Positions 6,479-7,051 of a stretch of DNA of 64,000 nucleotides are shown here, piece after piece. The translations under genes and the position numbers were made by a program. The notes under the pieces are model-generated. The model saw nothing but the letters and a program-made list of their open reading frames with translations. It had not been told where the DNA came from and ran no database searches. The DNA is from Escherichia coli. GTDB lineage: Bacteria > Pseudomonadota > Gammaproteobacteria > Enterobacterales > Enterobacteriaceae. Where the stretch lies: the NCBI RefSeq assembly GCF_016026235.1, contig NZ_CP065613.1. One strand, 5' to 3'. Every line of letters begins with the position of its first letter. The first letter of the stretch is position 1.

Positions 6479-7051
6479 TTACCCCTGTCGAAACAGTTCA
6501 CCCGTCAGGGCATCGCGGATTTCTGAAGGATTTAAACGCCCCCCCGTTTCACCAGGCACAACCGGGAACGCCGCGCCAAATTGTGCGCGAACTTCGTCTA
6601 CTGTTCGACAAGGTGGCAATCCACTCAAGTTGGCACTGGTAGAAACCAGCGGTTTACCATAAGCTTGGCACAAAGCAACCACCAACGGATGGTCGGTGAC
6701 TCGTACAGCAAGCGAATCAAAGCGGCCCGTCAACCAGCGCGGTGTTGTCGCAGGCGCGGGAAAGACAAAGGTGACAGGACCTGGCCAGCGGGAAAAAATG
6801 GTTTCACGCTGCGCATCAGTCAGCATGGTGTCATCAATATAGGGTTTAAGCTGCTCGTAATTTGCCGCGATTAAAATCAGCCCCTTATCAACCGGACGCT
6901 GTTTTAACTCCAACAGTCTCATCACTGCTGTTTCGCTATCAGGATCGCAGCCGACACCGAAAACAGCTTCCGTTGGATAGGCGATGACACGTTCTTCATT
7001 GAGGACATCTATCGCAGCTGCGATAGCGTCTCCTTGCAGGTTATTATTCAC
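6479..7051 (-). CDS. tsaC: threonylcarbamoyl-AMP synthase TsaC (YrdC), 190 aa, GTG start
   Basis: Protein [37 protein letters not shown]... begins at GTG 7049-7051. Confidence 0.88.

Follow-up and report, generated by a model that had tools for sequence, protein, structure and literature searches.

Gene content of the window

The stretch of DNA that we analyzed (hereafter, the window) is a 64,000-nucleotide segment of an Escherichia coli-type chromosome that runs from the rrnD rRNA operon to yhfS/yhfT. In order, it contains rrnD, yrdA-aroE-tsaC-yrdD-smg-smf, def-fmt-rsmB-trkA, and the alpha, spc, S10, and str ribosomal-protein operons, followed by crp, argD, pabA-fic-yhfG, ppiA, nirBDC-cysG, and the genes up to yhfS/yhfT. 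Among 5,426 complete genomes of E. coli, 5,425 had a match to a 2.1-kb query from the tsaC region, and two of these matches were at 100% identity. For a 23.5-kb query that spans tufA and yhfG, the best match was at 99.2% identity.

The original prediction was that three genes in the window (tsaC, tufA, and yhfG) start at GTG. All three start codons can be read directly on the minus strand, and both K-12 RefSeq and the NCBI annotation pipeline (PGAP) agree with these positions:

6479-7051, minus strand: tsaC, type 1 L-threonylcarbamoyladenylate synthase, 190 codons plus stop (PGAP annotation of FDAARGOS_943, and K-12 b3282)
7049-7051, minus strand: GTG start of tsaC (direct reading), followed by AAT AAT AAC CTG CAA
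31979-33163, minus strand: tufA, 394 codons plus stop (PGAP tuf in O157:H7 LSU61, and K-12 annotation)
33161-33163, minus strand: GTG start of tufA (direct reading), followed by TCT AAA GAA AAA TTT GAA CGT
53287-53454, minus strand: yhfG, 55 codons plus stop (PGAP annotation of O157:H7 LSU61, and K-12)
53452-53454, minus strand: GTG start of yhfG (direct reading), followed by AAG AAA CTC ACC GAT AAG

The corresponding genes of K-12 (NC_000913.3) are tsaC (also known as yrdC or rimN; b3282), tufA (b3339), and yhfG (b3362). They have the same start codons at the same positions, and the gene arrangements yrdD-tsaC-aroE and yhfG-fic are the same as well. The window and K-12 also share an identical sequence over the 100 nt that precede each of the three starts, so data on starts in K-12 can be transferred to the window. 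Among the published data for K-12, a study that combines N-terminal proteomics with initiation-site mapping (PMC13245402) confirms the starts of tsaC, yhfG, cysG, and rpsL, which is the kind of check that had been proposed. The supplements of a ribosome-profiling paper that used tetracycline (PMC4909307) contain no occurrence of yrdC, tsaC, yhfG, yhfK, or tufA. When we scanned the whole window against Rfam, we found rRNA, tRNA, StyR-44, and the alpha-operon leader only, with nothing at tsaC, tufA, or yhfG.

We conclude that tsaC, tufA, and yhfG are almost certainly three ordinary, already annotated genes whose translation initiates with fMet at GUG. Their GTG starts are already known from the reference annotations and the literature, and identifying them is annotation bookkeeping rather than new biology. 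The relevance is to correct annotation only: a mechanical ORF track would add false 15-residue N-terminal extensions to TsaC and to EF-Tu. The track contains these longer ORFs because the ORF finder extends each frame back to the first ATG, GTG, or TTG after a stop codon.

The start codon of tsaC

In the ORF track, tsaC begins at GTG 7096 and would encode a protein of 205 amino acids. The features near the start are:

7061-7065, minus strand: interrupted Shine-Dalgarno-like (SD-like) motif GGCGG, 9 nt ahead of the tsaC GTG and within the last codons of yrdD (-5.0 kcal/mol)
7056-7058, minus strand: TAA stop codon of yrdD, 4 nt before the tsaC GTG
7096-7094 and 7081-7079, minus strand: rejected GTG codons in the tsaC frame, in a stretch that encodes the C-terminus of YrdD in another frame

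We considered whether TsaC might be, wholly or partly, a protein of 200 or 205 residues that initiates inside the end of yrdD, at GTG 7081 or GTG 7096. Neither the window nor K-12 has a stop codon between 7096 and 7051. We computed the energy of pairing between each candidate SD sequence and the 3' tail of the 16S rRNA. GTG 7081 has no SD (+0.7 kcal/mol), but a passable match to the SD precedes GTG 7096 (-4.1 kcal/mol at a spacing of 10 nt). SD energy favors GTG 7051 (-5.0 kcal/mol) over GTG 7096 only modestly; the comparative and proteomic data decide the issue.

For the comparison, we scanned one genome per species and obtained 80 Enterobacteriaceae loci. Together with the window, this gave 81 sequences, every one of which has GTG as the codon that aligns with 7051-7049. 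In fact, GTGAA is invariant at the tsaC start, and the adjacent positions vary. Most of the 80 species have the -30 GTG, which counts in favor of a longer form. However, the -45 GTG (7096 in the window) is missing from many species, and in 21 of the 80, an in-frame stop codon precedes the tsaC GTG by just 3-18 nt. This leaves those 21 species with the tsaC GTG as the sole canonical start codon before the conserved YrdC domain. Also, the region corresponding to the extension (7052-7096) is conserved only as the coding sequence for the C-terminus of YrdD (…CGKPVSAE), in a frame other than that of tsaC. The original prediction that the upstream extensions are probably not translated thus needs a qualification. 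The readings in the tsaC and tufA frames are rejected, but 7052-7096 is translated, as part of YrdD.

The proteomic evidence is from TRAINSPOTTER Table S1 (PMC13245402). In this table, b3282 has the N-terminal peptide MNNNLQR at NC_000913:3431413-3431415. This site is the annotated (dbTIS) GTG start, its Ribo-RET evidence column reads "Ribo-RET, INRI", and no upstream alternative site is entered for b3282 among the covered rows. The TsaC proteins of K-12 and the window differ at two residues (R7G and V80A). Because residue 7 is arginine in K-12 and glycine in the window, the exact K-12 peptide is not expected from the window's TsaC.

The solved structures also begin at the annotated start or one residue after it, and the family models span the full length of the GTG-initiated TsaC. 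PDB entry 1HRU starts with MNNNLQ (matched from residue 1) and 2MX1 starts with NNNLQ. The window's TsaC scores 281.4 bits against NCBIfam NF007919, the equivalog for type 1 TsaC (cutoff 175 bits). It is a single-domain protein: YrdC (PF01300) is the only Pfam domain in its 190 amino acids, and there is no C-terminal Sua5 domain. The putative extension lies outside both the family profile and the structures. Overall, initiation at GTG 7081 or GTG 7096 is very improbable, and we consider GTG 7049-7051 to be the start of tsaC.

The start codon of tufA and the hairpins upstream

Among highly expressed genes with a non-AUG start, tufA with its GTG is a classic example. Its expression is reported to be high even though it does not start at AUG, and in most gammaproteobacteria, the str operon has a GUG start on tufA, on fus, or on both (PMC5499595). 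In the ORF track, tufA starts at GTG 33208 instead and encodes 409 amino acids. The features between fusA and tufA are:

33172-33176, minus strand: tufA SD sequence AAGGA, 8 nt before the GTG (-6.1 kcal/mol)
33183-33208, minus strand: perfect 11-bp hairpin GTGCTCTCTCC-TGAA-GGGGAGAGCAC, found in both the minimum free energy (MFE) and centroid folds
33223-33249, minus strand: a weaker first hairpin that spans the fusA stop codon (33234-33236), predicted in both the MFE and centroid folds

We considered whether EF-Tu might be initiated at GTG 33208 and then processed, or whether a minor form of 409 residues might exist. This upstream GTG is in frame with tufA, with no intervening stop codon. Its sole SD match pairs weakly and lies at a poor spacing (-3.3 kcal/mol at 14 nt), so pairing is stronger at the annotated start of tufA, as we also found for tsaC. 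In the predicted fold, moreover, GTG 33208 makes up the first three base pairs of the 11-bp hairpin.

The spacer between fusA and tufA has been studied in K-12. According to Vinogradova et al. [quoted passage not shown] The window's sequence is identical to K-12 across this element and has two predicted consecutive hairpins just upstream of the SD, as described; we compared the boundaries by description. By the same comparison, the 11-bp hairpin corresponds to what is described for one of the two consistent SR IIIb hairpins of SETI. Both the adjacent SD and the structured nature of the spacer, as given there, argue against initiation at GTG 33208.

At the protein level, the window's EF-Tu is identical to EF-Tu 1 of K-12. 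Classical protein sequencing reportedly found N-acetyl-serine at position 1. Among crystal structures, the 393-residue chains of E. coli EF-Tu (1d8t, 1efc, and others) begin at Ser2, which is encoded right after the GTG, and no E. coli EF-Tu chain among the PDB entries that we compared has the 15-residue extension. The match to the TIGR00485 equivalog covers residues 1-393, with a score of 794.5 bits (cutoff 522.4 bits). Because tufA (b3339) has no entry among the covered rows of the N-terminomics table in PMC13245402, the assignment of its start rests on the papers cited above, the PDB chains, and the reported protein sequencing.

We consider a longer or processed EF-Tu from GTG 33208 to be extremely unlikely. 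Instead, the GUG at 33161-33163 would be served by AAGGA, and the second hairpin in the fusA-tufA spacer would lock up the upstream in-frame GUG.

The start codon of yhfG

For yhfG, the ORF track already opens at the GTG: there is no in-frame start codon between it and a stop codon 19 codons upstream. The GTG is preceded by the strongest SD of the set:

53461-53466, minus strand: yhfG SD sequence GGGAGG, 6 nt upstream of the GTG (-11.1 kcal/mol)

The alternative for this gene is a shorter protein. Very small proteins are frequently mis-annotated, and yhfG does have one internal in-frame ATG, at codon 32. If translation began there, the product would be a peptide of 24 residues and the region of the GTG would be an untranslated leader. 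However, K-12 YhfG has an N-terminal peptide at the annotated GTG start, with Ribo-RET support, in Table S1 of PMC13245402. The family models also include the N-terminal half of the protein: NF007573 (126.9 bits, cutoff 77 bits) aligns to residues 1-55 of 55, and Pfam PF10832 aligns to residues 2-55. Furthermore, structures of the complex with Fic (5JFF and 5JFZ) contain all 55 residues of the sequence. In these crystal constructs, the YhfG chain (5JFF_B) reads VKKLTDK… after the tag; it begins with valine because the natural GTG is decoded internally there. The YhfG proteins of the window and K-12 are identical. Given the peptide, the profiles, the structures, and the strong SD, the chance that yhfG starts at codon 32 is minute.

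We prefer the GTG start, at which GGGAGG would drive initiation at the first possible start codon of the ORF. At the other end of the gene, yhfG overlaps the start of fic (ATG at 53297-53295) by 11 nt. Judging from this geometry, the expression of the antitoxin-like YhfG and that of Fic may be coupled.

Other non-ATG starts in the window

To survey start codons across the window, we mapped 78 K-12 genes onto it with a script and confirmed the GTG codons at the homologous K-12 positions. By the K-12 annotation, 8 of the 78 mapped genes have non-ATG starts (7 GTG and 1 TTG). The original list was right about tsaC, tufA, and yhfG and was incomplete: it named three of the eight, and missed yhfK (discussed below) and these four:

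5657-5659, minus strand: GTG start of yrdB, by K-12 mapping (SD -10.3 kcal/mol)
9850-9852, plus strand: GTG start of fmt, by K-12 mapping (SD TAAGGA, -5.9 kcal/mol)
19409-19411, minus strand: GTG start of rpsM, by K-12 mapping, inside the pseudoknot of the alpha-operon leader
59662-59664, plus strand: GTG start of cysG, by K-12 mapping

The GTG of rpsM is covered by a match to Rfam RF00140 (Alpha_RBS) at 19379-19490 (102.7 bits), which is a known autoregulatory structure. Across the E. coli genome, about 18% of genes have non-ATG starts. The proportion in the window (8/78) is somewhat below this (binomial P(X<=8) = 0.045), so the presence of GTG starts in the window is unremarkable. In the published N-terminomics data (PMC13245402), 60 of the 688 confirmed annotated starts are GTG or TTG, and cysG is among the genes in Table S1 with an N-terminal peptide at the annotated GTG start, with Ribo-RET support.

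Over-extended ORFs

Several other ORFs in the track had been suspected to begin at out-of-context upstream starts, and this was correct for five of them:

aroE: ORF track 6501, annotated ATG 6474
rsmB: ORF track 10822, annotated ATG 10843
zntR: ORF track 16118, annotated ATG 16070
rpsL: ORF track 36446, annotated ATG 36386
transposase: ORF track 15127, ATG 15076 (PGAP protein WP_001111632.1)

In each of these five cases, the SD match is better at the annotated start. For rpsL, the peptide MATVNQLVR was detected at the annotated start, which also has Ribo-RET support (Table S1 of PMC13245402). We also found two over-extended ORFs that were not on the original list:

yrdA: ORF track 4545, annotated 4872
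yheO: ORF track 38286, annotated 38274

Users of such an ORF track would obtain false extensions, similar to those of TsaC and EF-Tu, for aroE, rsmB, zntR, rpsL, yheO, yrdA, and the transposase of ISEc60.

The sixth suspect, yhfK, does not belong with the others: the TTG at which its ORF begins is the start codon in K-12 RefSeq.

48625-48639, plus strand: two annotated starts of yhfK, TTG 48625 (K-12 RefSeq, 700 amino acids) and ATG 48637 (PGAP, 696 amino acids)

The start of yhfK is disputed between K-12 RefSeq and PGAP. We looked for an SD sequence at TTG 48625 and at ATG 48637 and found none at either. The crp terminator hairpin GGCGCGTTAC…GTAGCGCGCC has a T-tract, and TTG 48625 falls within it (region 48599-48639). 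The stretch around the two starts is identical in the window, in K-12, and in one divergent strain of E. coli (a 219-nt match at 97.3% identity). Within the intergenic region, the divergent strain differs only at loop positions of the crp terminator hairpin; the other differences are further into yhfK. This variation favors neither start.

Junctions of yrdD, tsaC, and aroE

The start of tsaC is closely spaced with the end of yrdD in all of the Enterobacteriaceae sequences that we compared. Across the 81 sequences, the distance from the yrdD stop codon to the tsaC GTG is always between -11 and +4 nt: it is -11 in 18 sequences, -8 in 31, -4 in 3, +1 in 1, +3 in 3, and +4 in 25. The motif that contains the SD-like sequence (cggcgga) is near-invariant across the 80 species, and this includes a synonymous position of yrdD.

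The two genes do not always overlap. The yrdD frame passes the tsaC GTG in 52 of the 81 sequences and stops within GTGAATAA-type sequence, which gives an overlap of 4-11 nt between the genes. The arrangement differs in Escherichia, where yrdD stops 4 nt before the tsaC GTG.

A similar geometry is seen at the other end of tsaC:

6472-6474, minus strand: ATG start of aroE, 4 nt after the tsaC stop codon TAA (6479-6481)

This 4-nt gap is present in 60 of 75 scored species, and overall, the tsaC stop codon lies 3-8 nt before the start of aroE.

With its GUG just 4 nt past the yrdD stop codon, behind a GGCGG that is embedded in the end of yrdD, and with a like geometry at tsaC-aroE, TsaC is most likely translated by ribosomes that terminate at the end of yrdD and then restart. 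In other words, its translation would be coupled to that of yrdD, as far as the spacing of the genes can indicate. Gene pairs that are translationally coupled by termination-reinitiation have stop-start distances of a few nucleotides, and by this geometric measure, yrdD-tsaC, tsaC-aroE, and yhfG-fic resemble them.

The tsaC start is never ATG in the 81 Enterobacteriaceae sequences, although a single G-to-A transition would give a stronger start codon. We tentatively speculate, from this sequence pattern, that the weak GTG might itself be under selection rather than a neutral accident: it could hold TsaC at a fixed low ratio to YrdD via termination-reinitiation. We regard this idea as possible but somewhat unlikely. 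If it is true, then the identity of the start codon would be a conserved device for setting expression within the smf-smg-yrdD-tsaC-aroE string of genes.

Differences between the window and K-12, and other features

Relative to the K-12 chromosome, the window has a copy of ISEc60 within mscL and a divergent bfr-bfd pair, and it lacks the gsp/chiA cluster and frlABCDR.

13866-15159: ISEc60 (IS4 family), which splits mscL after codon 69
13886-15076, minus strand: transposase of ISEc60
13855-13865 and 15159-15169: target repeats of ISEc60, a duplication of 10-11 bp, GGG(G)ATATCCC
30395-31926: segment between rpsJ and tufA, which relative to K-12 lacks chiA and the entire gspA-O secretion cluster
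30589-31056: prepilin-peptidase ORF of 155 amino acids, with no match to K-12 DNA
61534-61562: site where the frlABCDR fructoselysine operon is absent
35445-35915: rpsG, encoding a short S7 of 156 residues
2420-2528: StyR-44 (Rfam, 122.9 bits), in rrnD

Two further copies of ISEc60, both from other genomes, have GGGGTAGCCC and GG(G)TAAATCCC as their flanks. Together, these flanks suggest that the element prefers palindrome-like targets of the form GGG-N4/5-CCC. FDAARGOS_943 shares the insertion in mscL and has at least 36 places that match ISEc60, and the element is also found on pINV plasmids of invasive E. coli.

The bfr-bfd pair near tufA is 77% identical to K-12, whereas its flanks are 100% identical. 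The segment at 30395-31926 looks like it is divergent or recombined. Where K-12 has the frlABCDR operon (about 5.2 kb), the window has yhfL, then 29 nt, and then the 3' end of yhfS; the operon is present in O157:H7 LSU61. The short form of S7 is as in O157:H7, while the K-12 annotation has 179 residues. StyR-44 is usually located just upstream of the 23S rRNA gene, and this is where it lies in rrnD.
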